The notes under the pieces were generated by a model. That model had not been told where the DNA came from. It saw nothing but the letters and a program-made list of their open reading frames with translations, and made no database searches. Of a stretch of DNA of 64,000 bases, positions 1,877 to 56,225 are shown one piece after another. The first letter of the stretch is position 1. Each line of letters begins with the position of its first letter. The translations under genes were made by a program, and so were the position numbers. The stretch is from a virus, in the IMG/VR virus record IMGVR_UViG_3300045988_154841, positions 1 through 64,000 of that record; one strand, given 5' to 3'.

Positions 1877-2998
1877 TTAACCTTCATAATCTCTTACTGC
1901 TATTGCACTGGGGAACCTGGGGATGCCATAATCACTGAGTTCCTGGTATTTCACGGTACATTGTTTTCCTATTAGGCTTTTTCTATTTACCCAGTAGGAG
2001 GTTCTTAGGGCCTTTGAGCCTTGAGGCCTAGCATTAAATTCCTTACCGTTCTTTGCTTTTAGGACGAATATGCCTGTACCTTTATCCCTGCCAGTTGCCT
2101 CTATCACGTCTATGATTGGGAATTCCTCGTCGAAGAACCTCTTAAGCTTTATCAGGTTGTTGGAACGGTATCCAATTTCATAAAGGCCTTGGAAGTTCCT
2201 TATGATTACTCCCTCATAGCCCTGCTTAACCATCTTATCGTGATATTCATATATCTCTTCTAGATTATTGGCTATGATAGTATCTAAGAACTTAATTGGG
2301 TCATTCTTACCTACCTTCTTCTTATCAGATTTTAATAGCTTGAATTGACGGTCGTAGTTTATTACTCCTTCTACCGGCTTATCATATACGATGATGTTTA
2401 TCTTATCAGTATCTTTGGATAGCCTTTTTACTGCTGAGATGATGCCTTGAAAGGTTAGGTCTCCATGATTATATAGCTCTCCATCCAAGGGAAGTATTTC
2501 TGAATGGTCCTCTAAGTACTTCTGGATGTGAGGTATGTTCAGGTCTTTACCTCTTCTAGATTTGAGATGTACACCCTCAGCATCTTTATACATGATACAC
2601 CTTACGCCGTCTAGTTTAGCTTGAACCATGCAGGGGAATGAAATGCGTTTTTCGTCCCATTTAATTGCTAGCATGGGCTCTGGGCTAGCCTTTTCTTCAA
2701 CCAATTGTTCATTATAACCTTTATCTTTAAGCCTAGCTATAATTGACTTAGCCTCCCTTATTGCTTGTTCCCAAGCCGAAGTTTGATTAGACCTTCCCAG
2801 ATTTTTACCCTCTGTATAAAGGTAGTGGTCGTAGGTGATTTTACCATTTGGCTCTATCTTTTTCTTAGTAGTCATTACTACTTTTTCTGTAGAATAGAAC
2901 CTAACGATTGTCTTGAAAGACCTTACTTGCCCAGACTTAGTCTTATTATATAATTTCTTAAAGGGCTTTCGCTTAACTGGTTTCTTATTTCTCTTCAT
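1877..2998 (-). CDS. ATP-dependent DNA ligase
   Basis: Motif I is KLDGVRC (adenylation Lys), with LDGELY, EGVIIRN and LIKLKRF matching motifs III, IV and V. I prefer the ATG at 2998 (TAAcATG just after the upstream stop) over the track start at 3025. Confidence 0.85.
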   Translation of the reverse strand: MKRNKKPVKRKPFKKLYNKTKSGQVRSFKTIVRFYSTEKVVMTTKKKIEPNGKITYDHYLYTEGKNLGRSNQTSAWEQAIREAKSIIARLKDKGYNEQLVEEKASPEPMLAIKWDEKRISFPCMVQAKLDGVRCIMYKDAEGVHLKSRRGKDLNIPHIQKYLEDHSEILPLDGELYNHGDLTFQGIISAVKRLSKDTDKINIIVYDKPVEGVINYDRQFKLLKSDKKKVGKNDPIKFLDTIIANNLEEIYEYHDKMVKQGYEGVIIRNFQGLYEIGYRSNNLIKLKRFFDEEFPIIDVIEATGRDKGTGIFVLKAKNGKEFNARPQGSKALRTSYWVNRKSLIGKQCTVKYQELSDYGIPRFPSAIAVRDYEG

Positions 2999-2999
2999 G

Positions 3000-3332
3000 T
3001 TAGTAAATCTTTTTATAGAAGCCAAGAAAATAACCTATTGAATATATCAAAGAACTTAATTTGTTCCTATTTTGAATATGTTCTATAGCGTTATCTGTGA
3101 ATTCATATAATATCTCCAGTTTATCCACTAGCCTATTGTAGTGATCTACTTCGGAAGCTTTCTTATAAGACTTATATTCTATGCTTAACATCAATAACCT
3201 TATGTCTCTTGATGTTATATGCTCAAATTCTAGATCTTTTATGCCTGAAGCCTCTTCGTCTAACCTTGCTTCAAACTTATTATCGACAAAACCCACTAAC
3301 CAAACGAGTGAGTATTTCATATCTTTATCCAT
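3000..3332 (-). CDS. Hypothetical protein
   Basis: This is a 110-aa ORF packed tightly within the operon. I recognised no motif. Confidence 0.6.
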   Translation of the reverse strand: MDKDMKYSLVWLVGFVDNKFEARLDEEASGIKDLEFEHITSRDIRLLMLSIEYKSYKKASEVDHYNRLVDKLEILYEFTDNAIEHIQNRNKLSSLIYSIGYFLGFYKKIY

Positions 3333-5686: not shown

Positions 5687-6784
5687 ATGGGATCTCTAAA
5701 TGTATTAGGTGTTTCAGCAGGGCAGGGAGCCCTGCTGTTCCCATTTATGAAGGAACCTGGTTTTAATGTTTTAGCTAATGTAGAACCGAGAGCTGTATTT
5801 CATACTCCAAAAGACGAACAATGGAAGCTAAATTTCAAAAACATACCCTTTTACAGGGATTTCTCGGAATTGGATAGTCTGACTTCAACGGTAGATATAA
5901 TAGTATCATCTCCAGATTGTGGAGCTTCTTCAATTATGAGATTATCTAAGGTGAAAGAATTAGGCAACCCTGAGAAGAATAAATCTCTAAACCTAACCTT
6001 GCAGGCCATACAAAAGTATCAGCCAAAGGTATTTTTATTAGAGAATTTACCTAGGTTGGTTAACCTACTGCCTGAAGAGTATCTTAGTGAGGCTTTATCA
6101 ACTTACCGATTAGTATATCACCAAAGGTCCGTATCAGATTATGGCAACTCTCAAGTATCTAGGAAAAGGTTAGTTATAATAGGCATTAAAAGAGGCTGTA
6201 AGAAATATTATAATTTGTTCGATGAAGTATTTAAAGTAAATACTCCAAAACTCACTAGAAACATTCTAGAAGTTGCCCAGTATAAAGGTAATATTGATAA
6301 TCATATGATACCGTTAGATAAAAAATTAGCGATGTATGATTATCGTAAATTGCCTGATACAACTACTTTAACGGTAAAGCAAATACACAAGCTATGGAAG
6401 AAAGACTTCAAGTTAGAAAAGAAATGGCCGATTAAGACTGCTAAGATGAGTACTTTACCTGGAGTATATAGGTTAGAGAATGACAAAGCTCCACTTACTT
6501 TAAGACCTGCTGATAGACAGTTTAGACCCGACGGTTGGCCACTTGGTATATTAGATTTCAAAAACATCATGGGATTCCCAAAGGAATTTAAGATTTACAT
6601 TGAACAAGGGGATAGGTATTTATATTGCCTTAATAAGGCAAGGTATACCTTAGCCAAGGGGTCAGTTTTTGAAATTGGGATTTGGTTTTTGGCATGCCTT
6701 AAAGGCCTTAAATTAAATCCTAAAAAGGTTAAAAAGAAACCAAAAGAGGTTAAAGGAATACCAAAAAAAGGTACACTTTTTTAA
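5687..6784 (+). CDS. DNA (cytosine-5)-methyltransferase-like protein
   Basis: Motif I-like GVSAGQG, motif IV-like SSPDCGASS, motif VI FLLENLPRL (ENV-type) and motif VIII QVSRKRLVIIG (QxRxR) are present. The tail is Lys-rich. Confidence 0.6.
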   Translation: MGSLNVLGVSAGQGALLFPFMKEPGFNVLANVEPRAVFHTPKDEQWKLNFKNIPFYRDFSELDSLTSTVDIIVSSPDCGASSIMRLSKVKELGNPEKNKSLNLTLQAIQKYQPKVFLLENLPRLVNLLPEEYLSEALSTYRLVYHQRSVSDYGNSQVSRKRLVIIGIKRGCKKYYNLFDEVFKVNTPKLTRNILEVAQYKGNIDNHMIPLDKKLAMYDYRKLPDTTTLTVKQIHKLWKKDFKLEKKWPIKTAKMSTLPGVYRLENDKAPLTLRPADRQFRPDGWPLGILDFKNIMGFPKEFKIYIEQGDRYLYCLNKARYTLAKGSVFEIGIWFLACLKGLKLNPKKVKKKPKEVKGIPKKGTLF

Positions 6785-7814: not shown

Positions 7815-9298
7815 ATTTAAAAAACACTACGGGCTTAAATACCGAGCAAGTAGGTATACTTAATAAAGTAGTACAGGATGTTTTCTTTTTTAGCATTTTC
7901 TGTTTTGTAGTACATCCCGTAAGGGGTAAGGTACATTTTGACCTATACCCTTTTCAAAAATCAGTACTGTACCAATTTATTCTAAATCAGTTCAATATCG
8001 TACTTAAGTTTAGGCAGGCCGGTATAACTGAATTAATATCTATGTACTGTCTCTGGTTAGCAATGTATCATCCAAATAAGAAGATAAATATCATATCGAT
8101 TAAGGACACTACAGCTAAGAAGGTTCTAAAGAAAATCAAATTTATGTATAAGAACCTTCCTTGGTTTTTACAGGTACCTATCGTAAATGGTAGAACTGGG
8201 GAATATGGCTCAGCTTCGATGATAGAGTTTAGTAATGGCTCTTTCATAGAATCAATACCTACTTCATCTGAGGCTGGCCGTTCTGAATCTCTATCTTTAT
8301 TGGTGATAGATGAAGCAGCTATAGTTAGATGGGCTTCTCAAATATGGGCTGCTGCTTTCCCAACATTGTCTACTGGAGGTGCTGCCATAGTTAATTCTAC
8401 ACCCTATGGAGTAGGTAACTTCTATTACTCAACTTGGGTAGATGCTATGTCAGGAGGTAATCCTTTCAACCCAATCAGGCTTTATTGGCGTATGCACCCT
8501 GAAAGAGATGATGATTGGTACAATAACATGTCTTCTGCACTAGGCCCAAAGAGAACTGCCCAAGAAATAGACGGAGACTTCCTATCATCCGGTAATACAG
8601 TATTCGATTTATGGGATATTAAAGCCATAGAGGATTGCTTATCCGATTGGCCAATCATACAACGTAGGTATAATGGCCAATATTTACAATTCTTAGAGCC
8701 TAACCCAAACAAAGAATATTTCATCGGTTCAGATATAGCTACTGGTAGAGCTTCTGACTATTCAACCTTCACTTGTATGGACAAGGAGGGAGAAGAACAA
8801 GCAGTATACAAAGGTAGAATGGCTGTTGATAAATATGCCAGACTATTGGGAGATACAGGAAGATTATTCAACTATGCTACAATAGCTCCTGAATCAAATG
8901 ATATAGGTTTAGCTGTAACTTCTATGCTACAAACAGAAGGTTATCCAAAACTATATTATTATCAGAAGATGATTAAGAAGAAAGGTAGATCTCGTCCAGA
9001 AGTAGATAAATCTCCAGGATGGTTAACCACTTCTAAGAATAGACCAGTTATAATAGATGGGCTAGAATCAGATATTCGTAATGATAATGTTATAATTAAG
9101 GATCCTTTCTTTGTACAGGAAGCCCGAACTTTTATATATGATGGTTTGGGAAGGCCAGTGGCTATGGGAAAACATAAAAGAAACAGTGAAGACGATTCTT
9201 TATCATCCGATGTATATGCTGATGATGATATTATGGGAAAAGCCATCTGCAATCACATACGAAAAGGTAAACAAAATATTATTATACAACCAAGATGA
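7802..9298 (+). CDS. Terminase large subunit (T4 gp17-like family)
   Basis: It has the Walker A-like LKFRQAGITE (RQ-x-G-x-T), Walker B LLVIDEAA, and nuclease-domain acidic motifs GSDIATG and IAPESNDIG. Confidence 0.85.
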   Translation: MAKIDLKNTTGLNTEQVGILNKVVQDVFFFSIFCFVVHPVRGKVHFDLYPFQKSVLYQFILNQFNIVLKFRQAGITELISMYCLWLAMYHPNKKINIISIKDTTAKKVLKKIKFMYKNLPWFLQVPIVNGRTGEYGSASMIEFSNGSFIESIPTSSEAGRSESLSLLVIDEAAIVRWASQIWAAAFPTLSTGGAAIVNSTPYGVGNFYYSTWVDAMSGGNPFNPIRLYWRMHPERDDDWYNNMSSALGPKRTAQEIDGDFLSSGNTVFDLWDIKAIEDCLSDWPIIQRRYNGQYLQFLEPNPNKEYFIGSDIATGRASDYSTFTCMDKEGEEQAVYKGRMAVDKYARLLGDTGRLFNYATIAPESNDIGLAVTSMLQTEGYPKLYYYQKMIKKKGRSRPEVDKSPGWLTTSKNRPVIIDGLESDIRNDNVIIKDPFFVQEARTFIYDGLGRPVAMGKHKRNSEDDSLSSDVYADDDIMGKAICNHIRKGKQNIIIQPR

Positions 9299-10770
9299 AG
9301 ATATTTGGATTCAATTTCTCTATTACTAGAGGAGCTCCAATTATTCAAGAAGAAAAGGAGCAATCTAATAAGAACTCTGTTACTGGCATTGACCCAGGTA
9401 GAGTATCTATCCCTGAAAACCCCTCAGGTATATTATATGGATTGAAGGATTTTACTCAAATGGTAAATCCTTCATTTCGTGTAGAGGTGATAAAATTGAT
9501 AAGGGATCTTTATAAAGTTAATCCTGATGTTAGCAAAGCTCTACAGGATATGTTTGAGTTAACTAACACAGGCCATCAAGTTCAATTCCCAAATAACTCT
9601 GATAAAGAGTCAGAAGCTATGAGCGACCATCTAAAGAGAGTATCAAAGAATTGGTCAAACTATACTGCTGGTATAGATGGGTTAGTGAATAAGATGATTG
9701 TTCAGTATTTCGTAGGTGGAGCAATTTCAGTAGAAGCTGTACCTAATGAAGACTTATCTGGCTTAGCCACTATACTTTTCATAAAGCCTGACTCCATAGT
9801 TTTTAAGAGGGAAGCTAATGGTGTATATCAGCCATATCAACATGTCACTTGCTCTGGTTTATTGGATGGTAAATTGGTAGATTACGTAAAGTTGAATACT
9901 CAGACCTATAAATATGTAGGTATGTATAATGATACCGATGAGCCTTATGGAATACCTCCATTCATGCCTTCTTTAGATTCACTAAAGACTCAGGCAGATA
10001 TGAAAGTTAATATAAAGCATATAATGGAAAATGCTGGTATATTAGGTTTCATGGAAGCTTTGATAGAAAAGCCACAACAACTTGCTAGTGAAAATTCTAG
10101 TATGTATGAAAGGAGGCTAGATTTAAACCTAAGGAGGCTTAAGATACGATTGAAAGAAGGTATGAAAGATGGTTTAGTAGTAGGTTATAAGGATGACCAT
10201 GAGTTTAAATTAAACTCTACCACTAAAGATATGAGCAATCTGGATAAACCTTGGGCAATGAATCAACAATCAGTAGCTAACGGCTTAGGTATAAATAGCT
10301 CACTGATAGGTGTAACTACTCCTACTACTGAAGGTGGGGCAGGTATAAACTTATCTAAGCTTATCTCGCAGTTAAAAGTTATACAAATGATTGTTAGTCA
10401 TACCCTAGAATTTATATACTCTCTAGAACTACGTCTAGCAGGCTTTAATAATAAAGGTATAAACATAGTTTGGTACCCTGCAACGGTATCTGATGATGTA
10501 AAAATACAACAGGCTAAACAATATAAGGTACAAAACTTGAATGCCCTATACAGAGATGGTATAATTTCTATGTTACAGTATGCTCAAGAAATGGGATATG
10601 ACCAACCCGACTTGGATGAGCCCAGAGTACCAATCTCTGAACAACACAAAAATAAACTAGGTATAGACAAAGATAAACGTAAATCAGATAAATCAAAATC
10701 TGACCGTAGGGTTAGAGATAAGAATAATCCACAACCAAAACGGAAAGATCAAAATCCACAACCAAGATGA
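9295..10770 (+). CDS. Portal protein (by position and size)
   Basis: This 491-aa ORF is coupled to the terminase by an ATGA overlap and has a basic C-terminal tail. I recognised no diagnostic motif. Confidence 0.6.
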   Translation: MKIFGFNFSITRGAPIIQEEKEQSNKNSVTGIDPGRVSIPENPSGILYGLKDFTQMVNPSFRVEVIKLIRDLYKVNPDVSKALQDMFELTNTGHQVQFPNNSDKESEAMSDHLKRVSKNWSNYTAGIDGLVNKMIVQYFVGGAISVEAVPNEDLSGLATILFIKPDSIVFKREANGVYQPYQHVTCSGLLDGKLVDYVKLNTQTYKYVGMYNDTDEPYGIPPFMPSLDSLKTQADMKVNIKHIMENAGILGFMEALIEKPQQLASENSSMYERRLDLNLRRLKIRLKEGMKDGLVVGYKDDHEFKLNSTTKDMSNLDKPWAMNQQSVANGLGINSSLIGVTTPTTEGGAGINLSKLISQLKVIQMIVSHTLEFIYSLELRLAGFNNKGINIVWYPATVSDDVKIQQAKQYKVQNLNALYRDGIISMLQYAQEMGYDQPDLDEPRVPISEQHKNKLGIDKDKRKSDKSKSDRRVRDKNNPQPKRKDQNPQPR

Positions 10771-12293
10771 GTAGACCAATAACAACCAGTAACAAGTCCT
10801 ACCTAGATTCGATGGTGATAGGTAGTGGACACTCTATCATGTCCGGTAATATACCGGAGGTAGTACAAGAGAAAAATAAACTAGTACAATTGACTAACAA
10901 CTTCTTCTCTTGGACAAATACCAGTAAAGACTCTGTTCAAGCATTAGGCTTTTGGGGAGGTGATATAGATTATAACACTTATTACCCTGATTTAAAACCC
11001 GATGAACTAACTCCTGCTGATAACGAGTTTATAACTCCGATGTTTAGACTTTTATCAGAGACTATAGTTAGTAAAAACTACAACCCAACTGATTTCAGTA
11101 GAAATGGGGTATTAAAAGCTTCTATGAAACTTCTGCTGGGTCAAACAGTAAACTGTGATCATGAGACAAACATAGGTAATGCTATCGGAGCAGTATCTAA
11201 AGTAGTCTGGCAAGATTCATATAAGGATGGCCAATTCACTATCCCAGGAGGTATAAACGGTATATTAAAAATTGATGGTAAAGCTAATCCTCGTATAGCT
11301 AGAGGTATAATGATGGACCCTCCATCAATACACAGCAATTCAGTAACTGTACAGTTTAAATGGGAGAAGTCACATCCGGAAATGAGTGATGAAGAGTTTT
11401 GGCAAAAACTCGGTACATACGATGAAAATGGAGTATTTATCTGTAGAGTAGTTACTGAAATAGTAAGATATCTAGAAACATCATTAGTCTCACATGGAGC
11501 TGACTATTTTGCTCAGAAGATTGGAGAAGATGGTAAAATTGTAAACCCTGAATTTGCTCATCGTACTTGGAATTCTTTTAAAGAATACGAGAATGATAAA
11601 TCAAAGCAATACTTTTTTATAGATAATAAATCTTGCGGTAACTTTACAGACAACGATACTCAGGTAAACAATAATGTAAATAAGAATCCGAAACCATTTA
11701 AATTAAATGATAATAAAATGAACCAAGAACTGAAAGAATTTTTAGAGAAGCTATTTGGAGACAATATGCTTACTCTCGGTGAAGGTAAAGAGGCCACTCA
11801 GGATGAAGCTTTGTCTTTGGTAAAAGCTTTGGCATCTGATAAGGTTTCTCTAGCCGAAAAGGTTACTAGCCTTACTGCCGAAATCGAAAAATTAACCGAA
11901 AAGGTTACCAGTCTTACTGCCGAGAATACTTCTCTAAAAGAAGTTTCTGAATTTGGTAAGAAATGCCTTGTAAACCTACGTGAAACTGTAGTAGCAAATT
12001 ACAAAAAAATTCAGGGTGATAAGCTGGATGAAAAAGACCCAGTACTTATCATGTTGAATTCAGAAACTACTCCTTTGATTACTTTAGAGGGTTTGAATAA
12101 GAACTATGAGCAAACTCTAAAAGAACTATTCCCTCTTAAGTGTTCTAAATGTGGTTCGAAGGATGTTAGTAGGTCTTCTTCTGTTCAAGACCCCGAAGAT
12201 CCCGATACTACTCAAAATAGTGAAGGTGTAGTGGATAATGCTACTGCAACTAACAATATCCTTGCTCGTAAGAATAAGTATAACAGAGAATAA
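10767..12293 (+). CDS. Putative prohead protease / scaffolding fusion protein
   Basis: It lies between portal and capsid genes. The N-terminal globular part contains CDHETNIGNAIG. The C-terminal part is coiled-coil with a duplicated EKVTSLTAE heptad segment. Confidence 0.45.
   Translation: MSRPITTSNKSYLDSMVIGSGHSIMSGNIPEVVQEKNKLVQLTNNFFSWTNTSKDSVQALGFWGGDIDYNTYYPDLKPDELTPADNEFITPMFRLLSETIVSKNYNPTDFSRNGVLKASMKLLLGQTVNCDHETNIGNAIGAVSKVVWQDSYKDGQFTIPGGINGILKIDGKANPRIARGIMMDPPSIHSNSVTVQFKWEKSHPEMSDEEFWQKLGTYDENGVFICRVVTEIVRYLETSLVSHGADYFAQKIGEDGKIVNPEFAHRTWNSFKEYENDKSKQYFFIDNKSCGNFTDNDTQVNNNVNKNPKPFKLNDNKMNQELKEFLEKLFGDNMLTLGEGKEATQDEALSLVKALASDKVSLAEKVTSLTAEIEKLTEKVTSLTAENTSLKEVSEFGKKCLVNLRETVVANYKKIQGDKLDEKDPVLIMLNSETTPLITLEGLNKNYEQTLKELFPLKCSKCGSKDVSRSSSVQDPEDPDTTQNSEGVVDNATATNNILARKNKYNRE
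11854..11925 (+). repeat. Imperfect 30-nt direct repeat with a 42-nt period
   Basis: CCGAAAAGGTTACTAGCCTTACTGCCGAAA at 11854 and CCGAAAAGGTTACCAGTCTTACTGCCGAGA at 11896 match at 27 of 30 positions. They encode the duplicated coiled-coil segment. Confidence 0.8.
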
Positions 12294-45309: not shown

Positions 45310-45696
45310 ATGGCTAAAGGTAAACAGAAAAAGATTGACTTAAAGAATCATGACCCTCTCTCACCATTAGAGGTAGACTTCCAATCAATAGGTTCTAAAA
45401 TGGACCCATGCTTTGGAAAAGGATATGACTTAAGTACTAAAGAATGCAAACAATGCGGAGACTCTGAGCTATGTGCTTTCAGGATGGCCCAAGTCTTAGG
45501 TAAAACCCGAAAAGAACTGGAAGCTAAGAAACATTATAAAGATCTTGACGTCTTAGAAGACGTAGACGGTATAAAGAAATTTATGAGGAAACTAAAACGT
45601 TCAGGTTTAAAAAGGAGAGAAATAGTAAAGAAAGCCTCCCTTAAATTTGAAGTACCCTCTGCAGATATACGACAAATATACAGAACTCTAAGATGA
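45310..45696 (+). CDS. Hypothetical basic protein with a Cys cluster
   Basis: This 128-aa ORF contains CFGKGYDLSTKECKQCGDSELC. Confidence 0.6.
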   Translation: MAKGKQKKIDLKNHDPLSPLEVDFQSIGSKMDPCFGKGYDLSTKECKQCGDSELCAFRMAQVLGKTRKELEAKKHYKDLDVLEDVDGIKKFMRKLKRSGLKRREIVKKASLKFEVPSADIRQIYRTLR

Positions 45697-45941
45697 AAAA
45701 TCTACTTAATTGCTTTTGGTACTATGTACGTATATGGATGAACAATCCAGAAGAAGGAATTTATCTTCAGGATGATATTTCTTCAAAACTCGGTAGGAAA
45801 GAGGATATACATCGAGTACTAAATAAGTTAGACCAGGAATTACAAAATCAAGGTATAAGTAAGGTATTTGCCAGAAAACAAGGCATGACCCTACAAGATT
45901 TAATAACACAAATAAACAACTTTACAAATGGAAAGAATTAG
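45693..45941 (+). CDS. Hypothetical protein
   Basis: This 82-aa ORF has an ATGA overlap with the upstream gene. Confidence 0.5.
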   Translation: MKNLLNCFWYYVRIWMNNPEEGIYLQDDISSKLGRKEDIHRVLNKLDQELQNQGISKVFARKQGMTLQDLITQINNFTNGKN

Positions 45942-46500
45942 ATGTACAAGAGTAAGAGAGGTAGAATTACCCTCACGTAACAACCCCGGTGATGCAGGCT
46001 TAGATTTTTATATGCCAACAGACCTAACCATCAGTGACCTTATCAATGCAAACTCTAAGGTAGAGGATGTATGCTATAGTCAAAACTTTGCAGGAGTAGG
46101 TAACTTTTCATGTATCATCAACGATGAAAAGGTCCATCAACTGATTATCGGACCCAGGACAAGGATTATCATACCATCAGGTATCAAGGTACTGCTAGAA
46201 CCAGAAGCTTCAATGATGATGGCAGCTAATAAGTCAGGACGTTCTACCAAACAAGGATTGATATTCACTGCTGAGATCTGTGATTCACCATATAATGGAG
46301 AATATCACTTGGGCATCTACAACACAACTAGCCGTCAACAGGTAATCACGGCTGGAGAAGCGGTAGTACAATTCATCCACACTCCGGTATACCTATCTCA
46401 GGTAGAAGAGATCTCTAACGAAGAATATAAGGAAGAAGCTGAAACCTGGGGCACCAGAGGTGAAAAGGGAATGGGCTCAGGCAACAACAAAAAGAAATAA
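45928..46500 (+). CDS. dut: Trimeric dUTPase
   Basis: It has motif 1 PGDAGLDF, motif 3 CDSPYNGEYHLGIYN (D-x-x-Y-x-G-E) and motif 5 RGEKGMGSG. Confidence 0.85.
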   Translation: MERIRCTRVREVELPSRNNPGDAGLDFYMPTDLTISDLINANSKVEDVCYSQNFAGVGNFSCIINDEKVHQLIIGPRTRIIIPSGIKVLLEPEASMMMAANKSGRSTKQGLIFTAEICDSPYNGEYHLGIYNTTSRQQVITAGEAVVQFIHTPVYLSQVEEISNEEYKEEAETWGTRGEKGMGSGNNKKK

Positions 46501-46503
46501 CTC

Positions 46504-47373
46504 ATGGACGTAAGAAACATAAAAGAAGAAGCCCCTATTATTCAAGATGGTAAATATCTAGAGGGAATCTGGGAACTACAAAAGAAATTACTATCAGGCT
46601 ACATAGGTAAGATAGAAAAAGATCTGCCCATGTACCCAATAGATATGCACTCATATAAAGGCCAACAGGTACTAAAAGATTTCTCAGCTAGAGTTGTAGA
46701 AGAAACTGCTGAAGGTTATGAATCTACCTCTGCTGCTTTGAACTTAGCTGAAAAATATGGCTACAATATACATTCAATGGCTGATTCTGATTTTGAGATG
46801 CTGCTGAATCATCTGCAGAATTCAAACGAAGAACAGGCAGATGCTGTAGCTTTCTATGTAAGTCTGTTCCTCTATGCAAACGTAGATATACAGGATATCT
46901 ATGACTATTGTAATGATAGATTTGCAAAAGGAACTAACAAATATAAAGACCTAAACTCTATCATGTCTTTGGGACTAAGTCTACATCACAGAGAAGGTTA
47001 TCTCATGGAGGTTGAAAACCTATTCCCCTTGCTATCAGATGATGACTTAGAAGATCATGAGAAGGATGTAAATCATGTGAGAGGCTACATACCTGCCTTT
47101 ACAAAGATATGTTCAAAATCACACAGCCTAGAAGATCACATGCTTTGGTCAGTAACCTATCACATAAATGTTGCAAGGAATTTCTTAAAGAATAAACCTT
47201 GGAAGCAAACCCAGGAATTGACCGATATCACAAGGTATGATGAACAAATAGTATTGGGCTTTATAAAATATATGGGTTATCTGGCAGCTGTAGGATTTAC
47301 TGCAGAGTCCTTATATAACCTTTTCTATAAGAAACATAGAGTAAACATTTTTAGACAAACTAGCGGCTATTAA
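46504..47373 (+). CDS. All-alpha NTP pyrophosphohydrolase (MazG / dimeric dUTPase-like)
   Basis: It has the EExxE motif in ARVVEETAEGYE and the ExxD motif in NEEQADAVAFYVSLF. The ORF is 289 aa. Confidence 0.5.
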   Translation: MDVRNIKEEAPIIQDGKYLEGIWELQKKLLSGYIGKIEKDLPMYPIDMHSYKGQQVLKDFSARVVEETAEGYESTSAALNLAEKYGYNIHSMADSDFEMLLNHLQNSNEEQADAVAFYVSLFLYANVDIQDIYDYCNDRFAKGTNKYKDLNSIMSLGLSLHHREGYLMEVENLFPLLSDDDLEDHEKDVNHVRGYIPAFTKICSKSHSLEDHMLWSVTYHINVARNFLKNKPWKQTQELTDITRYDEQIVLGFIKYMGYLAAVGFTAESLYNLFYKKHRVNIFRQTSGY

Positions 47374-47375
47374 AT

Positions 47376-48311
47376 ATGTCAGGATTCAATAAAGCAATTC
47401 CGGGTATAACTGATAAGATGCACTCGGGAGATGAAACTGTACATGCCTTAGAATTCGCTACATCTCAGGAGGCTTGGGAAAAACTCAATGAGGCTTTCAT
47501 TAGGTTGGACCCAATCCTCTTTGAGAGAGGGGCAGTGGCTAATGCAGGAGTAGCAGTATCATATAATGTATTCGTAAAGATACGTAAAGCTTGGATAGAC
47601 CCAGAATTTGATTATGGTAGGCATTTCAATTACAAGGAGGCTAAGTGGACAAGCTTACTTAACAACTATCTAGACTTCAATCAGCTTGACTTGGTAAAGT
47701 CTCAAGTAAAGGTAAGGAAGGCTACCTATAATCAAAACTACAACATAAGCTATATATTCAACAACTCCCATAATAATGGTAAGCAATGTTTATTGTCTGC
47801 TACCTTCTCAAAGAGATTTCAGGAAGATGTGCCAGTAATAACTATGGTAATCCGAGCTTCAGAGATCACTAAGAGGTTGATTTTTGACTTCTTGCTTATT
47901 CAAAGAATGGCTGAATATGTATATGGAGTAAATCAAACGGTACAGATAAACTTGTTTGCTACTCAAATGTTTGGCAATCTTGAAACTTTGTTGATGTATG
48001 GAGCTCATAAGAAATTGAAGAAAGTAATCAAAGGCCTTGACCCAAATAACCCCTGGATTAAGAGGGTTATGGAAGTAAACGAAAAATTCTTGAAAGGCAC
48101 TGAAAAAGATTTCTCAAGCTATAAGGTATTCCTAAGAGCTTTCAAAGTATTAAGGCCAGACTTATATACCTATACTCCCCTATTGGCAAAGAATCTAATC
48201 ATAGAAGAGGATGATATAGAATACCCTGAGGATTATATAACCTATTCTCAAAGGAAGAAATATAAGAAAAAATACTTATCCAAAGCCAAACAAGTGAAAG
48301 ATGTTCAATAA
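47376..48311 (+). CDS. Divergent thymidylate-synthase-fold-like protein (tentative)
   Basis: GKQCLLSATFSKR...VITMVIRASEITKRLIFDFLLIQRMAEYV can be aligned by eye on the TS core (Cys...QRS-D...F-N/D). The terminal H-x-Y motif is absent. Confidence 0.3.
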   Translation: MSGFNKAIPGITDKMHSGDETVHALEFATSQEAWEKLNEAFIRLDPILFERGAVANAGVAVSYNVFVKIRKAWIDPEFDYGRHFNYKEAKWTSLLNNYLDFNQLDLVKSQVKVRKATYNQNYNISYIFNNSHNNGKQCLLSATFSKRFQEDVPVITMVIRASEITKRLIFDFLLIQRMAEYVYGVNQTVQINLFATQMFGNLETLLMYGAHKKLKKVIKGLDPNNPWIKRVMEVNEKFLKGTEKDFSSYKVFLRAFKVLRPDLYTYTPLLAKNLIIEEDDIEYPEDYITYSQRKKYKKKYLSKAKQVKDVQ

Positions 48312-48341
48312 GAATTTATAACAACATTAAAAATTTAAAAT

Positions 48342-49145
48342 ATGCGAATCTACAGTAGTTCAAGAGAATTGATGTCAGAAATGGGCAGAGACTTATGGGA
48401 GATGGGCCATGAAGTAAAACCCAAGACTTATCAGAATAAGGTTATCGAGGGTGATGAGAACTTTATCACCAAAGAGGAGTTCTGTAAGCAATATTGCTTG
48501 ACAAGTCTAAATGACCCTGAATTCCTATTTATCTTCACGAAGGCTAAAGAATGGGCAGATGCTGAACTTAAAGAAAGGCTATCTGGTGAATGTATAAATC
48601 CTGGAAAAGCTTGGGAATTGAGAAAAGAAGTATGGCAACAATTTTTGGTAGAAGATGACGAACCTACTCCGGATATGATAGAGCCTTATTACTTTGATTA
48701 TACTTACTCAGGTAGGATAAACAGTTCTGTGATAAATCCCGTATTTGATGAGAACGAAAGATATGATGTAGAAAGGAAATCGTATATTCCTACTATAGAG
48801 GCTTTAATTAAATTGTTGAAGTTTGACCCAGATACTAGGAAAGCAGTTTTACCAATTTTTACAGATCAGGACTGTGATTATTATGATGGTAGCCGAAGAA
48901 TACCCTGTTCAATGTATTACGGGTTTTTCATCAGAGAAGGTAAATTAAACATTACCTATCATCAGAGAAGTTCAGATTTTGTATGTCACTTCGGTAATGA
49001 TGTATACTTGGCCTGGAGAACAATGGAATATGTAGCTGATAGAGTTGGTGTTAAACCTGGACACCTTATTCATACTATAGATTCCTTGCATTGCTATAAG
49101 AAAGACTGGCATTTATTGAAAACCTCGGTAGATGATCTTATTTAA
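48342..49145 (+). CDS. Thymidylate synthase / dCMP hydroxymethylase family enzyme
   Basis: DPDTRKAVLPIF, IPCSMYYGFFIREGKLNITYHQRSSDFVCHFGNDVYLAW and DSLHCY align without gaps to E. coli ThyA [51 protein letters not shown] and GDTHLY. Confidence 0.8.
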   Translation: MRIYSSSRELMSEMGRDLWEMGHEVKPKTYQNKVIEGDENFITKEEFCKQYCLTSLNDPEFLFIFTKAKEWADAELKERLSGECINPGKAWELRKEVWQQFLVEDDEPTPDMIEPYYFDYTYSGRINSSVINPVFDENERYDVERKSYIPTIEALIKLLKFDPDTRKAVLPIFTDQDCDYYDGSRRIPCSMYYGFFIREGKLNITYHQRSSDFVCHFGNDVYLAWRTMEYVADRVGVKPGHLIHTIDSLHCYKKDWHLLKTSVDDLI

Positions 49146-49161: not shown

Positions 49162-49210
49162 GGGCAACTATCTTAAGTAGTAATACTTATGGGTAGTTGC
49201 CTTTTATAAT
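49162..49210 (+). terminator. Long hairpin intrinsic terminator
   Basis: GGCAACTA pairs with TAGTTGCC, and an inner TAAGTA/TACTTA pairing extends the stem around a GTAA loop. It is followed by TTTTATAATTT. Confidence 0.8.
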
Positions 49211-49222
49211 TTATACCCCGAT

Positions 49223-51487
49223 ATGAGAACAAGATATAAGATAATAAAGAACTATACAGAACTAGACAGATTAATAGACTTATGTATTAAAACTGGAGTA
49301 GCATGTGTAGACTTCGAAACTAATGCTGTACCAATACATAACGAGGACTTCAGGCCTACTATATTATCCGTAACCTGTATGCCTGGTTTTGGTTGTTCTA
49401 TACCCTTGAGTCACTCAGAAACTAAAGCCTATACAGATAAGGGATGGTCCTGGAAAAGGGCTTTAAAAAAATTCAGTAGGAAGGTTATAGAAAATAGGTC
49501 AGTAGTAAAGATAGCTTGGAATGCCAAGTTTGACTTCGCTATATTTCAAAAATATGGCTTGTTCTATAGAGGTACTCTGTTAGATGGTATGCTTGCTAAG
49601 TATCTACTAAATGAAGAGAGGCCTAATGATCTAAAGGAGATGGTTAAAAGGTATATACCTGAGGCTGCTGGTTATGAATCAGATAAAGGCTTTGATAGAT
49701 TACCTTGGGATAAAAAGCCTCTAAAAGAACTTTGTAGATATGGCTGTCAAGATACAGATTATACATATAGGCTCATGATATTTTTTGAAAAGAAGCTGTT
49801 AGATATTAATATGTATGATTTATACCGTAATCTTATTATGCCCGCTAGCAGAGTACTACAAACTGTAGAATTTAATGGGTTATACCTAGATAGGGAGTTT
49901 AATCAAAAACTCCTTAGAGAATACGGTCCAAAAATAGAACAGGCTAAAAATACTTGTTTAAACTTACCAGTAGTAAAAAGGTTTCAGACTTGGTATAATA
50001 AACAGAAGATAGATAACTACATAAAAAACATTGAAAAAGAATTAGAGGAGTTAGACTACAATGATCCTAAGGACTCAAGAAAAATAGCTACTAGGGAAGC
50101 GAAAATAACCAATATAAGAGCAGGAATATTCTCTACTAAAAAGGAAAAAGAACTAAATCGAGATATAAACCTGGGCAGTCCCGTTGATCTACCAAAATTA
50201 CTATTCAGTGAAGAAGGTTTTAACTTCACACCTATAAAACAAACAGACTCAGGTAAGGACTCTACTGATGAAGAATCTTTAGTTGAGTTGCGTATGAAAA
50301 TAAAAAACCCAAAATCACCAAAAGCTATATTCTTAGATTCTTTACTAGAATTAAGGGGCTTAGAAAAAATGTATAAGACCTACATATTAGGTTGGTCAGA
50401 GAAAGTTCAGGATGATAGTTGCTTACATGGTAGGTTTAATATTGTTGGTACTACTAGCGGTAGGTTAAGTTCATCTGAGCCTAATATGCAACAGATACCA
50501 AAAACATCCGTAGACCCAAACATAAAGAAACAACTTATAGCTAGGCCAGGAACCTTATATATGGCTATGGACTTTAGTCAAGCTGAGTTAAGGATAATGG
50601 CTCATTTATCCGGAGATGAAACTTATTTGAGAGCTTTTGCAAATAACGAAGATCCTCACTTAGCTATTGCTGCAAAGAAATATGGAGTACCTTATAAAGA
50701 AGCTCTAGCTATTTACGAAGATGAAGATCATCCTGAACACAAGTTATGGAAGAATCGTAGAAAACAAGCAAAACAGATTGCCTTTGGTATCATATATGGT
50801 ATTCAAGCAAAGCTTTTATCTCAGAAACTATCCGATGTAAAAGAGGGCTTGATTGTTACACCCGAAGAAGCCCAACAACAGTTGGATGAGTTTTTTGAGG
50901 ATCACCCAAAGATAAAAAAATTCATGGCTAAACAAGAAAGGCTATTAAGGAAACACGGCTATATAACTTCCTTGTTTGGTAGAAGACGTAGATTACCTCA
51001 AGTATATTCAGATGACCGTTCTGAAGCTGCTTATGCTGTAAGGCTAAGCATAAATATGCCTTGTCAGAGTAGTGCATCCGATTTATGTTTATTTGGTTCG
51101 GTATTATTATATTGGCTAATGCACCAAGGTAAATTTCCTAAGATGGATTCTGTATGTTTGGTACATGATGCCAATTATTTTAATGTTGACCCAGGTACCA
51201 TAAATGTATGGACTGTATATCAAATGTGGGATATATTTAGAAACCCAAAAACTAAAAAGTATTTTGGTTTCAGTATAGATGATGTAGATATGTCTATGGA
51301 TTTTGGTATCGGTAGGTCTATGGCTGAAGAATTGCCCTTTATCCCTGGTTATGATTATAATAAAATGCTAGAGCCTGATTTTTCTGTTGAAGAATATATG
51401 TTAGAGCATAAGAAATACAAACATGTACAGATAAAGGACTTCCCTAAACTATTTAAAAAAGACTTTGATTATTATAATAAAAAATAG
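49223..51487 (+). CDS. Family A DNA polymerase with 3'-5' exonuclease domain
   Basis: The exonuclease motifs are Exo I VDFETN, Exo II NAKFDF and Exo III YGCQDTDYTY. The polymerase motifs are A MAMDFSQAELRIMAHLS, B RRKQAKQIAFGIIYG and C LVHDA. Confidence 0.95.
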   Translation: MRTRYKIIKNYTELDRLIDLCIKTGVACVDFETNAVPIHNEDFRPTILSVTCMPGFGCSIPLSHSETKAYTDKGWSWKRALKKFSRKVIENRSVVKIAWNAKFDFAIFQKYGLFYRGTLLDGMLAKYLLNEERPNDLKEMVKRYIPEAAGYESDKGFDRLPWDKKPLKELCRYGCQDTDYTYRLMIFFEKKLLDINMYDLYRNLIMPASRVLQTVEFNGLYLDREFNQKLLREYGPKIEQAKNTCLNLPVVKRFQTWYNKQKIDNYIKNIEKELEELDYNDPKDSRKIATREAKITNIRAGIFSTKKEKELNRDINLGSPVDLPKLLFSEEGFNFTPIKQTDSGKDSTDEESLVELRMKIKNPKSPKAIFLDSLLELRGLEKMYKTYILGWSEKVQDDSCLHGRFNIVGTTSGRLSSSEPNMQQIPKTSVDPNIKKQLIARPGTLYMAMDFSQAELRIMAHLSGDETYLRAFANNEDPHLAIAAKKYGVPYKEALAIYEDEDHPEHKLWKNRRKQAKQIAFGIIYGIQAKLLSQKLSDVKEGLIVTPEEAQQQLDEFFEDHPKIKKFMAKQERLLRKHGYITSLFGRRRRLPQVYSDDRSEAAYAVRLSINMPCQSSASDLCLFGSVLLYWLMHQGKFPKMDSVCLVHDANYFNVDPGTINVWTVYQMWDIFRNPKTKKYFGFSIDDVDMSMDFGIGRSMAEELPFIPGYDYNKMLEPDFSVEEYMLEHKKYKHVQIKDFPKLFKKDFDYYNKK

Positions 51488-52199: not shown

Positions 52200-52604
52200 A
52201 TGTACGTACCATTAAAGTTTATAACAAAAGAAGCTTCAGAAAAAATAGCATTTGCTATAGCTTCTAATGGAGGCTTTCCTACTGAAAATAGGGTATTGAT
52301 AGTAAGCCCCAAGAATCAGGAGGTTAAAGTTGGAAATATCTTGCTACCTCAAAATACTTCCAAGGAGAATATTCCAAATAAGGGAGTAGTTATATTAAAA
52401 GGTGAGATCTCTGAAGAGTATAAATCATACAAGGGTATTATTAATACCGGTACCATAGTAACTTATGGCTTATATGCCGGTAAAAAGATAGATTTTGATC
52501 CCAAAATATTCGAAGAACTAGATAATGACTTATTTAATGCCGAAGAGAATGAATTCTCGGTATTATCTCTAACTGAAATCATATTTACAGAACTTAATAA
52601 ATAA
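52200..52604 (+). CDS. GroES-like co-chaperonin
   Basis: NRVLIVSPKNQEVKVGNILLPQNTSKENIPNKGVVILKGE and TGTIVTYGLYAGKKIDF align by eye to GroES [39 protein letters not shown] and VGDIVIFNDGYGVKSEKID. Confidence 0.5.
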   Translation: MYVPLKFITKEASEKIAFAIASNGGFPTENRVLIVSPKNQEVKVGNILLPQNTSKENIPNKGVVILKGEISEEYKSYKGIINTGTIVTYGLYAGKKIDFDPKIFEELDNDLFNAEENEFSVLSLTEIIFTELNK

Positions 52605-52612
52605 CATAAGAT

Positions 52613-53395
52613 ATGGTAAAGGAAATGAAAAAGAAGAAACTATCTACGGAAGGTACTTCAGTAAGAGAAAAATTAATGGCTAGAAAAAAGAAGCTAGCCG
52701 AGAAAGGAACTGGTAATGGTTTTGTTTTCCCGAAAAATGGAACTACTCGTATTCGCATAGTAAGTGCAGGAGCTAATGAAGAGTTCGGTGTAGAGATCAT
52801 AAGATTTTATCTTGGGGATCATTCAATATATTCCCCGGCTACTTTTGGTGAAGCATGCCCTTTCATGGAAAAATATGATGAGTTGAAAAACTCAAAAGAC
52901 GAAGATGATAAGAGGCTAGCAAAGAAACTGGTACCCTCTAGAAGATTTGCTATCCCTGCCCTAGTATATAAAGATGATAAGGGTAAAGAACTTGACTATG
53001 ACAATAAACCTAGATTGGTACTAATACCCAGTTCTGTATATCAGGATATTATTGAACTTTATCTAGATGAAGATGAAGCAGGAGATATGACTGATCCTAA
53101 GACTGGGTATGATATCAAGATTGAAAGAACAGGTACTGGGCAATTTGATACTAGTTATTCAGTTAGACAATGCAAACCTACTAAGCTAGATAAGTCACTG
53201 TTAAAGCCCGTAGATTTAGAAAGTATGGTAAAAGCTCAAATTAAAAGTTATGATGAGCTAGAAGATGAATTGGATAAATTCCTGAATACCAGGGCAGACG
53301 ATGACGATGAAGACGATGAGATGCCTAAGAAAAAGAAAAAAAGTCTAGACAAGGATAAAAAGAAGAAGAAGAAGAGTAAAAACGGCGATATTTAA
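52613..53395 (+). CDS. Putative single-stranded DNA-binding protein
   Basis: It lies in the replication module and has an acidic tail (DDDDEDDEM) followed by a poly-Lys run. I recognised no diagnostic motif. Confidence 0.3.
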   Translation: MVKEMKKKKLSTEGTSVREKLMARKKKLAEKGTGNGFVFPKNGTTRIRIVSAGANEEFGVEIIRFYLGDHSIYSPATFGEACPFMEKYDELKNSKDEDDKRLAKKLVPSRRFAIPALVYKDDKGKELDYDNKPRLVLIPSSVYQDIIELYLDEDEAGDMTDPKTGYDIKIERTGTGQFDTSYSVRQCKPTKLDKSLLKPVDLESMVKAQIKSYDELEDELDKFLNTRADDDDEDDEMPKKKKKSLDKDKKKKKKSKNGDI

Positions 53396-54600: not shown

Positions 54601-55513
54601 AAAACATTACTTACTGGTGGATGGAGAGGGTCTCCTCCACCAGTCTTTTCATAAGTTTAAAAACTTAAGTTCACACGGTTGTCCGACTGGAGCTATATTT
54701 GGGTTTTTTAAATCACTAAGAACCTATCTGTATAGATTTCAGCCAGATGATGTATACATAGTATTTGATAACGGTCACTCTAAATATCGAGATAATATAT
54801 TGCCTTCATATAAAGAGCATCGGAAAAGAATAGATATAGATTATGAATCTCTAAGTAATCAAAAGAGAGAGATAATGAGGTTACTAAAAGCCTTTAATAT
54901 CAAATACATCTATGACCGTAAGAAGAAATGTAATTTTGAGGGAGATGACTTTATTGCTTGGTTGGTTTTAAAAGAACTACCTCGAAAACAAAAGATAACT
55001 ATAATAACAGCAGATAAGGATTTTAATCAGTTACTAAGGGGCCAATCTATAAAGATATATAATCCTAGGAAAGACCAATTGATATACGAAAGTAATTGCC
55101 AAACCATATATGGTTATAGGGCTAGTGAAACGGTTGATTTCTTAAGTTTAGTTGGAGATACCTCCGATGATATACCTGGTTATAAGGGTATAGGTGAAAA
55201 GAAAGCTAAGCTTTTCTTGGATAAATATGGCTCAATTGAAAATTACCTAAATCAGGATGAATGTTTACCTGATGATGAAGGCCACTCAAAGATGAAAGAA
55301 GTATGGAGTAGAAATAGACAATTAATAGACCTTAAATGGTTCTGTAATAACTATAAACCTGGGAAACTACCCTTAGTTGAATCTCAAAAAGGTGTAAGAC
55401 TAAAGGTAATCCAAAAGAAAGCAAAGCTTTATCAACTATATTCTTTTGTAGAAGATGCTTTTCTAAATGAGTTTAACAATCAATACAACAGGACTTATGA
55501 ACAAGGAAAATAA
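54581..55513 (+). CDS. 5'-3' exonuclease / flap endonuclease
   Basis: It has LLVDGEGLLH, VFDNGHSKYR, EGDDFIAW, ITADKDFNQL and the H3TH motif GDTSDDIPGYKGIGEKKA. Alternative starts are at 54584 and 54593. Confidence 0.9.
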   Translation: MMKQMNRKHYLLVDGEGLLHQSFHKFKNLSSHGCPTGAIFGFFKSLRTYLYRFQPDDVYIVFDNGHSKYRDNILPSYKEHRKRIDIDYESLSNQKREIMRLLKAFNIKYIYDRKKKCNFEGDDFIAWLVLKELPRKQKITIITADKDFNQLLRGQSIKIYNPRKDQLIYESNCQTIYGYRASETVDFLSLVGDTSDDIPGYKGIGEKKAKLFLDKYGSIENYLNQDECLPDDEGHSKMKEVWSRNRQLIDLKWFCNNYKPGKLPLVESQKGVRLKVIQKKAKLYQLYSFVEDAFLNEFNNQYNRTYEQGK

Positions 55514-56225
55514 AAAATTGATTATGTTTGCTGGGCCTTCGGGAATAGGTAAAACTACTTTGGCAAAAGGCGTAGAGGAATTATATTCAAGTCAATCCGT
55601 TGATATACCCTTTATATCTGGCTCAGTTTCTGATTTAGTAGAGTCTACTAGAGAAATGTCCCATAAAGATATGTTGAATAGAGACTCTATGACTCTGCAA
55701 ATGGAAGATTATCAGATATTAAATCTGAGAAAGAAGAAATTTAGCAATCAAATTGCCTCGGGTAAGAATTTTGTTTGTGACCGTAGTTTTTTAGATTCGG
55801 CTGCTTACTTTATATACAAACAGGCCGAAGTTATTGCAAAGTGCGAAGTAGAACACTTCCTTGCACTTAGTAAGTTATTAAGTGCAAACCATTGTACTCA
55901 CTTGATACTGTTGGATTTTACACCAAACATGATACAAGAATGGGTAACTGAAAACAATAATAAACGGATAACTAACAATTATTTTCAGATGGAGATAGCC
56001 CGTATTATGAATATGGTATTAGATCTTTGGGGTATAAGGTATACAGAAGATATATTTAGTTTAAAGGGTAAAAATATTTTCTCTGTACCAACCTCTCTAA
56101 AGTATGGAGCTAAAAGAGGTATTATAGACTCACCTTATGGGAAAGTAAATGTACTAGTTATACGTGAAAGTGTAAAAGAAATTAGAGAAAAACTAATAGA
56201 AAGGTTTATAGATGGAAAAATCTAG
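55497..56225 (+). CDS. P-loop deoxynucleoside / deoxynucleotide kinase
   Basis: It has the P-loop FAGPSGIGKTT and a dNK-like CDRSFLDSAAYF. The start is ambiguous (55467, 55497 or 55524). Confidence 0.65.
   Translation: MNKENKKLIMFAGPSGIGKTTLAKGVEELYSSQSVDIPFISGSVSDLVESTREMSHKDMLNRDSMTLQMEDYQILNLRKKKFSNQIASGKNFVCDRSFLDSAAYFIYKQAEVIAKCEVEHFLALSKLLSANHCTHLILLDFTPNMIQEWVTENNNKRITNNYFQMEIARIMNMVLDLWGIRYTEDIFSLKGKNIFSVPTSLKYGAKRGIIDSPYGKVNVLVIRESVKEIREKLIERFIDGKI

Follow-up and report, generated by a model that had tools for sequence, protein, structure and literature searches.

A conserved phage cassette pairing two thymidylate synthase-fold proteins, a candidate nucleotide-pool pathway for cytosine modification

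Does a tightly packed group of four pyrimidine-metabolism genes in a viral genome encode a route to modified cytosine in DNA, and does that route follow the chemistry of phage T4? This question is raised by the IMG/VR record IMGVR_UViG_3300045988_154841, of which positions 1 to 64,000 (the window) were analysed; about 15–25 kb of the phage genome lie outside this 64-kb stretch. The cassette (Table 1) consists of four open reading frames (ORFs) on one strand, separated by 3, 2 and 30 nt, which encode a trimeric dUTPase (gene 1, 190 aa), an all-alpha nucleoside triphosphate pyrophosphatase (NTPase; gene 2, 289 aa), a very divergent thymidylate synthase (TS)-fold protein termed TSL3 (gene 3, 311 aa) and a TS homologue (gene 4, 267 aa). 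The original prediction had recognised the four genes and their folds and likened them to the 5-hydroxymethylcytosine (5hmC) pathway of T4. Its coordinates were exact, and Pfam, PDB or structure-model evidence was obtained for all four fold assignments, so that the observation was confirmed and the interpretation partly supported. We read the cassette, with moderate confidence, as a pre-replicative pathway that modifies deoxycytidine monophosphate (dCMP) at C5 in the nucleotide pool, in a new variant with two TS-fold proteins.

The active site of gene 4 was evaluated in an alignment with E. coli ThyA, the T4 dCMP hydroxymethylase gp42 (its sequence checked against PDB 1b49), the TS of phage Xp12 and 15 TS homologues that partner TSL3. 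Gene 4 matched the Pfam TS model PF00303 at 1.7e-13 (50.7 bits; cutoff 24.3). Its nucleophile, Cys189 (48906–48908), corresponds to E. coli C146; Arg209, Ser210 and Asp212 correspond to R166, S167 and D169, Glu78, Trp98 and Tyr122 to E58, W80 and Y94, Arg166/Lys167 to R126/R127, and His250/Tyr252 to H207/Y209. Asp220 (48999–49001) stands at the position of N177 and Ser190 at that of H147, Arg186 (48897–48899) takes the position of E. coli L143 and T4 D145, and Tyr120 that of T4 Ser94. The tail after Tyr252 has 15 residues, compared with 55 in ThyA and 28 in gp42. Gene 4 is not of the canonical ThyA type, having neither Asn177, His147 and Arg21 nor the long sealing C-terminal tail. The earlier call of an Asp-type TS was thereby upheld, Asp at 177, Ser for His147 and the missing tail indicating a cytosine-type enzyme. 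The same pattern was found in 15/15 partner TS homologues: Arg143, Ser/Thr147, Asp169, Asp177 and a tail of 8–18 aa (E. coli numbering). TS homologues with Asp177 and without His147 are enriched on cytosine-modified metavirome contigs, where they co-occur with all-alpha NTP pyrophosphatases, according to a metavirome study (PMC8670742).

Pool-level replacement of cytosine is known from three enzyme types, those of T4 (hydroxymethyl), Xp12 (methyl) and RB69 (hydroxyl). Judged by its residues, gene 4 is a cytosine-type TS homologue whose active-site signature fits none of the three. It shares with gp42 the Cys nucleophile, the cytosine-reading Asp and the short C-terminus. The rest of the T4 hydroxymethylase signature differs: Arg186 replaces Asp145 and Tyr120 replaces Ser94. 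In the T4 enzyme, Asp145 lies three residues before the Cys and activates the substrate water, the D145N mutant is inactive, and Ser94-x-Tyr96 belongs to the hydroxymethylase signature (PMC6400193). A strictly T4-like system, in which gene 4 would be a dCMP hydroxymethylase and 5hmC would replace cytosine fully with no further tailoring, is consequently regarded as unlikely. The Asp177, the catalytic Cys, the short C-terminus and the NTPase of the gp56 family (see below) do agree with it, as does a close relative that carries IspD and LicD genes between the TS and the family A DNA polymerase (PolA), since the acceptor of a phospho-alcohol transferase would have to carry a hydroxyl group, as 5hmC does. 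It is opposed by the Arg, which is invariant at the Asp145 position, by the Tyr, by an additional obligatory TS-fold protein that has no T4 counterpart, and by a C5-cytosine DNA methyltransferase homologue and GATC avoidance, both of which speak against full replacement.

In the PDB, gene 4 was closest in sequence to the 5-hydroxy-dCMP synthases 9iqu/9iqc (8.5e-13). These flavin-dependent enzymes (RB69 gp48, DLP3 gp80 and HY126 AfhB) are likewise short TS homologues with Asp177, and are diagnosed by D169N (PMC13326640). They differ from gene 4 in this residue and in E143, gene 4 having Asp212 and Arg186 at the two positions; gene 3 has Glu163 at the position of D169. The assignment of gene 4 as a 5-hydroxy-dCMP synthase was rejected, the Asp169 equivalent being kept despite the best PDB match.

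The second TS-fold protein, TSL3, is beyond the reach of ordinary sequence comparison. Gene 3 had no Pfam match, and 0/79 diverse family members matched any relevant Pfam model, including PF00303; its profile found no PDB sequence even at E 10, and BLASTP detected no similarity between gene 3 and gene 4. Out of 1.84 billion cluster representatives, a profile search returned just 152 clusters at E ≤ 0.001, and Pfam analysis of the longest members revealed no informative domain fusions, just low-complexity tails. An AlphaFold2 model built on the 79-sequence alignment reached a mean confidence (pLDDT) of 93.3; an earlier model from 16 close homologues (pLDDT 62) was discarded. At E ≤ 0.001, Foldseek matched this model exclusively to TS-superfamily structures in the PDB, the top matches being cytosine-specific, namely the CMP hydroxymethylase MilA (5jnh/5b6d), phage HY126 dCMP hydroxylase and T4 dCMP hydroxymethylase. 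The E-values ranged from 2e-5 to 9e-4 and the TM-scores were modest (0.35–0.55), with the 5-hydroxy-dCMP synthase 9iqu giving the highest target-normalised value (0.55). MilA, the first of the matches, is only 13% identical to gene 3 (TM about 0.37), has Asp at both 143 and 177, and serves antibiotic biosynthesis, with a ribonucleotide as its substrate. Furthermore, profile–profile alignment (hhalign) of TSL3 with the gene 4 TS family gave E 5.7e-5 and a probability of 66%, and placed TSL3 C138, R160, E163 and D171 onto E. coli TS C146, R166, D169 and N177 (codons of Cys138 at 47787–47789 and of Asp171 at 47886–47888). The description of gene 3 as divergent and TS-fold-like thus stood.

Five residues (K90, Y98, C138, R160 and D171) were invariant in 79/79 TSL3 members, and N38, Y86, W91, E163, R167 and R254 were nearly so. 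From the model and this conservation, gene 3 looks like an active, cytosine-reading enzyme and not a decayed paralogue. In the secondary structure of the model, the place of the Arg-Arg loop, which in TS each subunit contributes to the site of the other, is held by YNQN. The retention of this loop in the TS homologue and not in TSL3 would be compatible with an asymmetric heterodimer, without demonstrating one. Among the gut-phage IMG/VR loci, TSL3 was the most conserved cassette protein (71–83% identity), a prominence that the original prediction had underplayed. Tandem TSL3 duplicates were also seen, in locus L001 (MT121964; 6000–6989 and 6982–7767) and in L094 (4971–6002 and 6065–6871); they give three consecutive TS-fold genes, and the Cys, Arg, Glu and Asp are kept in both copies. 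In two records, L102 (MW202455; 2909–3679) and L103 (PP693299; 4992–5825), TSL3 carries the putative label 'pyrimidine hmase synthase', and a literature search found no paper that uses or explains it.

The constancy of the arrangement was assessed in 80 IMG/VR loci of the gut-phage clade, about 75 of which had enough flank to judge gene order. The order dUTPase–NTPase–TSL3–TS–PolA was kept in all of these, and the gene arrangement is therefore not due to chance. Identities within the clade were 54–70% for the TS homologue, 63–80% for PolA, 46–56% for the dUTPase and 36–60% for the NTPase. At greater distance, where TSL3 identity falls to about 20% (loci L084–L094), an NTPase–TSL3–TS block always adjoins PolA, and most of the loci with distant TSL3 have a P-loop kinase directly upstream or downstream of the module. 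In the Clostridium perfringens phages CPD4, CP3, Clo-PEP-1, CPAS-15, P21 and A2-H1 the order is kinase–NTPase–TSL3–TS, three small ORFs and PolA; in Pseudomonas phage PMBT14 it is kinase–PRA-PH NTPase–TSL3–TS–dCMP deaminase–PolA. The module was also found in Gordonia phage Gibbous, Yersinia phage P744 and Manatee Spring virus MW202455, and TSL3 homologues, seen with partial annotation, in Pseudomonas phages Almagne and Lebethron, Serratia phage Serbin and its relatives, and Brevundimonas phages. TSL3 is thus the constant partner of the Arg143/Asp177 TS subtype, and the pair spans phages of at least three phyla of hosts (Bacillota, Pseudomonadota and Actinomycetota), to which Bacteroidota would be added if the predicted gut host is right. 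Co-occurrence of all four genes, which had been proposed as a check, held in the gut clade and not beyond it: the trimeric dUTPase gene is confined to this clade, and the modules of CPD4, PMBT14 and Gibbous lack it. Gene 1 is a clade-specific accessory, and the conserved core consists of NTPase, TSL3 and TS, which a P-loop kinase usually accompanies.

PolA was the constant downstream neighbour, and is the presumed user of a modified deoxynucleoside triphosphate. Its gene is interrupted in related gut phages (L001, MT121964, 10895–14173; MT121960, 33101–37309); the MT121964 protein of 1092 aa contains an HNH/intein-like insert, and the tblastn match falls into 2–3 pieces.

Table 1. Position and evidence of the cassette genes and of other features of the window
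Feature	Position (nt)	Strand	Evidence or context
Gene 1, trimeric dUTPase	45928..46500	+	PF00692, PHROG 135, PDB dUTPases
Gene 2, all-alpha NTP pyrophosphatase, dimeric dUTPase/dCTPase (T4 gp56) family	46504..47373	+	PF08761, PHROG
Gene 3, TSL3, very divergent TS-fold protein of uncharacterised family	47376..48311	+	AlphaFold2 model, hhalign
Gene 4, TS homologue, distinct cytosine-type subfamily (by sequence)	48342..49145	+	PF00303
Intrinsic-terminator-like hairpin and U-run	49162..49212	+	Between TS homologue and polA
Family A DNA polymerase	49223..51487	+	Follows the module in every lineage examined
P-loop kinase-like protein, candidate (modified) deoxynucleoside monophosphate kinase	55467..56225	+	AAA_28, PHROG 761
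C5-cytosine DNA methyltransferase homologue, outside the cassette	5687..6784	+	PF00145

This survey bears on the simplest explanation, ordinary pyrimidine housekeeping, in which the pyrophosphatases would sanitise dUTP or non-canonical NTPs, the TS homologue or homologues would make dTMP, and the DNA would be canonical. Genes 1 and 2 both belong to families named dUTPase, the genome (35% GC) needs much dTTP with no other TS or ThyX found in the window, and both the C5-methyltransferase homologue and the GATC avoidance agree with canonical DNA. However, two relatives encode a canonical TS beside the module (L092/L093, 4008–4973; N177, H147, V143 and a 61-aa tail), and MW202455 carries ThyX besides the TSL3/TS pair, which indicates that dTMP synthesis is not the role of the pair. 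Moreover, Asp177, Ser147, the lack of R21 and the missing tail of gene 4 are conserved across the subfamily, and Asp177 homologues track modified DNA in metaviromes (PMC8670742). We consider housekeeping very improbable. A short TS homologue with N177 and D143 was also noted in L084 (3454–4098); it would fit a dUMP hydroxymethylase signature.

The survey likewise brings the 5-methylcytosine (5mC) pathway of Xp12 into view, which comprises a TS-homologue dCMP methylase, a dCMP deaminase and dihydrofolate reductase (DHFR); Xp12 DNA is fully 5mC. Its TS also carries Asp177 and a non-acidic residue at 143, it works by the same pool-level logic, and a deaminase lies by the TS in several module-bearing phages. 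On this model the TSL3/TS pair would make 5-methyl-dCMP, 5mC would enter DNA via the pool, part of which might be deaminated towards dTTP, and the DNA-level C5-methyltransferase would top up residual cytosine, the same base arising by both routes. TS homologues with methyl products tend to have a non-acidic residue at 143 (PMC13326640), and 5/7 Asp177 TS homologues from deaminase-associated neighbourhoods made 5-methyl-dCMP in E. coli, according to an NEB preprint (10.1101/2024.12.05.627091). PMBT14, Gibbous and P744 resemble those neighbourhoods in having a dCMP/cytidine deaminase between TS and PolA, and 5mC is chemically compatible with a co-encoded C5-methyltransferase. Gene 4 nevertheless departs from the Xp12 TS at each of its marks, having Glu for R21, Arg-Lys for RR126/127 and 15 residues for the 61-residue tail; Xp12 has no TSL3 homologue, and the scanned ORFs of the window include neither a deaminase nor DHFR. 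In addition, hydride transfer in TS requires a closed, tail-sealed site (PMC6400193). The whole of this scheme, including the contribution of the DNA-level enzyme, is held as a tentative possibility. The Xp12 pathway is at least as good an analogue as that of T4, the T4 comparison catching the architecture and not the chemistry. The idea that TSL3 stands in for a dCMP deaminase was set aside, PMBT14, Gibbous and P744 carrying both.

If dCMP is the substrate, its likely source is gene 2. Gene 2 matched PF08761 (dUTPase_2) at 24.1 bits (curated cutoff 22.9), as well as PHROG 12184 and 173 (NTP pyrophosphohydrolases); a PDB sequence search with it gave no match. T4 gp56 matched the same Pfam model at 25.4 bits over the same C-terminal stretch, and the gene 2 C-terminus matched gp56 directly (BLASTP E 4e-5), bearing out the original assignment of gp56 to this class. 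A multiple alignment showed that the two share the motifs KxWK, D..HF and a C-terminal Y..K..N..RQ..GY, and gene 2 additionally holds EExxE/EExxD acidic motifs. In gene 2 and its gut-clade orthologues, some 100 additional residues separate the acidic motifs from KxWK; the homologues of CPD4, Gibbous and T4 (gp56) lack them. We infer that gene 2 is a candidate dCTPase, which would clear dCTP and feed dCMP to the TS homologue.

Gene 1 is a conventional trimeric dUTPase by its matches to PF00692 (2e-11, 44.1 bits) and to 56 PDB trimeric dUTPases (best 3c3i at 3e-8), and all five dUTPase motifs are readable in its translation, including CDSPYNGE (motif III) and RGEKGMGSG (motif V). Compared by eye, it has Gly where E. 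coli Dcd has its catalytic Glu; the dUTPase motif V and this missing Glu ruled out a dCTP deaminase. Downstream of gene 4, the strong terminator of the original prediction was recovered as a hairpin at 49162–49202, with a folding free energy of −26.4 kcal/mol (z −5.63; 0/200 shuffles equally stable), which a consensus terminator scan did not pick up. Directly upstream of the cassette lies a small conserved ORF (45310–45696, plus strand), about 60% identical within the clade, that encodes a motif rich in Cys (CxxC...C).

A modified nucleotide would also have to be phosphorylated. The kinase candidate of the window showed a clear P-loop and matched AAA_28 (2e-8) and PHROG 761 'thymidylate kinase' (7e-12); its matches to the dNK and Tmk Pfam models were weak and below cutoff, and its PDB matches were limited to the P-loop. 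The P-loop of the predicted kinase was therefore confirmed, its start was not (55497 is an internal ATG of the longer ORF), and its identity as a kinase is weak. It is not detectably homologous to the in-module kinase of CPD4, PMBT14 and Gibbous, of which it is a candidate functional analogue; in L088 a homologue of it directly follows PolA.

Outside the cassette, the C5-cytosine DNA methyltransferase homologue matched PF00145 at 7e-14 (52.4 bits; cutoff 22) and contains the motifs AGQG, PDC, ENL and SRKR. Its homologue in MT121964 is 47% identical and annotated 'DNA cytosine methyltransferase'; its relatives in the phage database were confined to two gut-virome records, and a PDB sequence search gave no match. 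PDC is an unusual catalytic motif where PPC is expected. GATC is strongly avoided in the window (80 observed versus 200 expected, z −8.5), and the CpG odds ratio is 0.47. Under an Xp12-like scheme, 5mC would leave GATC open to enzymes not blocked by C5-methylation. Low counts were also seen for CATATG (5 versus 21 expected) and ATGCAT (0 versus 7 expected). The earlier statement that no DNA-level tailoring enzyme is present held for glycosyltransferases, none being found in the scanned ORFs, and not for the methyltransferase homologue; a close relative also carries IspD and LicD genes.

Taken together, the genes suggest the following pathway. Gene 2 would hydrolyse dCTP (and dCDP) to dCMP, so that canonical dCTP is excluded and substrate supplied. 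Gene 4, in which the required residues are present, would attack C6 of dCMP through Cys189, read the cytosine through Asp220 and install a one-carbon-derived group at C5. TSL3, given its co-occurrence with gene 4, may work together or in sequence with it, as a heterodimer, in sequential steps or on parallel substrates. The P-loop kinase would then raise the product to the diphosphate, and the adjacent PolA would incorporate it; TS homologues with a cognate deoxynucleoside monophosphate kinase are known to place modified dC in DNA (PMC13326640). With gene 2 perhaps specialised on dCTP, gene 1 would be left to remove dUTP from the pool.

The T4 hmC pathway (gp56, gp42 and gp1) comprises the same three kinds of activity as the cassette plus kinase, and gene 2 lies in the Pfam family of gp56 with the same C-terminal motif. 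Of the T4 logic originally proposed, the conserved unit, the cytosine-type TS, the gp56 family and the in-module kinase in distant phages found support, and the hydroxymethylase signature did not. Arg186 and Tyr120 leave hmC specifically no better supported than 5mC or another group. The cassette differs further in its additional TS-fold protein and separate trimeric dUTPase and in the clustering of its genes beside a family A polymerase, and the phage of the window differs in that no glucosyltransferase was found and a C5 DNA methyltransferase homologue is encoded.

Several observations weigh against the proposed pathway. The departures of gene 4 from both signatures described above count here: with neither the Asp and Ser of T4 nor the tail and R21 of Xp12, neither known chemistry is cleanly predicted. 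Gene 2 is a candidate dCTPase, and the kinase assignment is weak. A C5-methyltransferase needs cytosines with a free C5, which argues against complete replacement unless the pool product is 5mC, and the avoidance of GATC suggests DNA that is still exposed to restriction, which would be unexpected if it were fully protected. Scanning of window ORFs revealed no glycosyltransferase, 2-oxoglutarate-dependent oxygenase, dCMP deaminase or DHFR, and a literature search found no base-composition data for any module-bearing phage, including CPD4-like phages, PMBT14 and Knuthellervirus. Replacement of cytosine is probably incomplete.

Some of the same observations would suit manipulation of the pool without incorporation, in which dCTP is depleted, or a modified nucleotide blocks host replication or defence, and the phage DNA stays canonical. 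The methyltransferase homologue and GATC avoidance suggest largely canonical cytosine, and the window kinase is weakly assigned. This explanation is nonetheless thought improbable: the module always adjoins the replicative PolA, and a dedicated kinase accompanies it in most lineages, as expected if the product must reach the triphosphate.

Within the preferred reading, a C5-modified dCMP made in the pool, the likeliest products are 5-methyl-dC, by the logic of Xp12, and 5-hydroxymethyl-dC, by that of T4, with a new substituent as a real possibility. A methyl group is favoured by the non-acidic residue 143, the deaminase association in relatives and compatibility with the C5-methyltransferase; the open site without a tail points to a hydroxymethyl group, as do the IspD and LicD of a relative, whose acceptor would have to carry a hydroxyl. 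As a rough division of belief, the methyl product received the largest share, still well short of a half, hydroxymethyl and other groups received equal and smaller shares, and no product at all the smallest. The failure of all three known signatures and the invariant partnership with TSL3 would allow for catalysis by two components or for a new product. We entertain, as a doubtful proposal, that the Arg143/Asp177 short-tailed TS and its obligatory TSL3 form an unrecognised two-component dCMP-modifying system, in which either TSL3 supplies a step lost by the TS, be it water activation or reduction, or a C5 group other than methyl, hydroxymethyl or hydroxyl is installed by the pair.

The neighbourhoods of modified cytosine defined by MetaGPA offer a further parallel in gene content. 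According to the NEB preprint (10.1101/2024.12.05.627091), an Asp177 TS with PRA-PH, dCMP deaminase and PolA is typical of modified contigs; the same kinds of gene lie beside PolA here, with the difference that the window NTPase belongs to PF08761 and not to PRA-PH. A second TS-fold family and the Arg143/short-tail subtype are not described in the passages searched of the MetaGPA studies (PMC8670742, 10.1101/2024.12.05.627091). What is new is thus an active-site signature outside the three known types together with a constant, unstudied second TS-fold enzyme. If the two-component proposal is true, non-canonical DNA would occur in one of the commonest human-gut phage families and in culturable Clostridium, Pseudomonas, Serratia, Yersinia and Gordonia phages, and the IspD/LicD pair of some relatives would add a phospho-alcohol to a DNA base. 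Modified DNA in such phages would affect escape from restriction and CRISPR in the gut, genome recovery by sequencing or cloning, and the supply of enzymes for epigenetic sequencing tools. The presence of the module in easily grown phages makes the modification question experimentally tractable.

The closest records to the phage are the human-faecal phages MT121964, MT121960 and MT836181, with no cultured close relative. Its gene content includes tail tube and baseplate genes, DnaB, primase and PolA. The phage and its relatives probably fit the 'Flandersviridae', as judged by gene content (a contractile-tail module, a DnaB/primase/PolA module and the IspD and LicD insertion in MT121964, which some members of that family also have). 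Members of this family infect Bacteroides and Parabacteroides and are detected about as often as crAss-like phages (PMC8008677); the searched text of that paper holds no mention of thymidylate synthase, dUTPase, MazG or hydroxymethyl. In L001 (MT121964), IspD (PF01128, 1.4e-26) and LicD (PF04991, 8e-39) lie at 9154–10774, between TS and polA. Benler et al. take the pair as isoprenoid or teichoic-acid enzymes (PMC8008677); from its position, it could instead transfer a phospho-alcohol onto a modified DNA base that carries a hydroxyl.

Other genes of the window were also noted. An ATP-dependent DNA ligase (PF01068 and PF14743) is encoded at 1877–3025 on the minus strand; the same ligase domains are among those linked to cytosine-modified contigs by MetaGPA, and in MW202455 a ligase lies between TS and PolA. 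In the replication module, a GroES/Cpn10-like ORF (52200–52604; PF00166, 2.7e-7) directly precedes an ORF for a T4 gp32-like single-stranded DNA-binding protein (52613–53395; PF08804, 1.2e-13).

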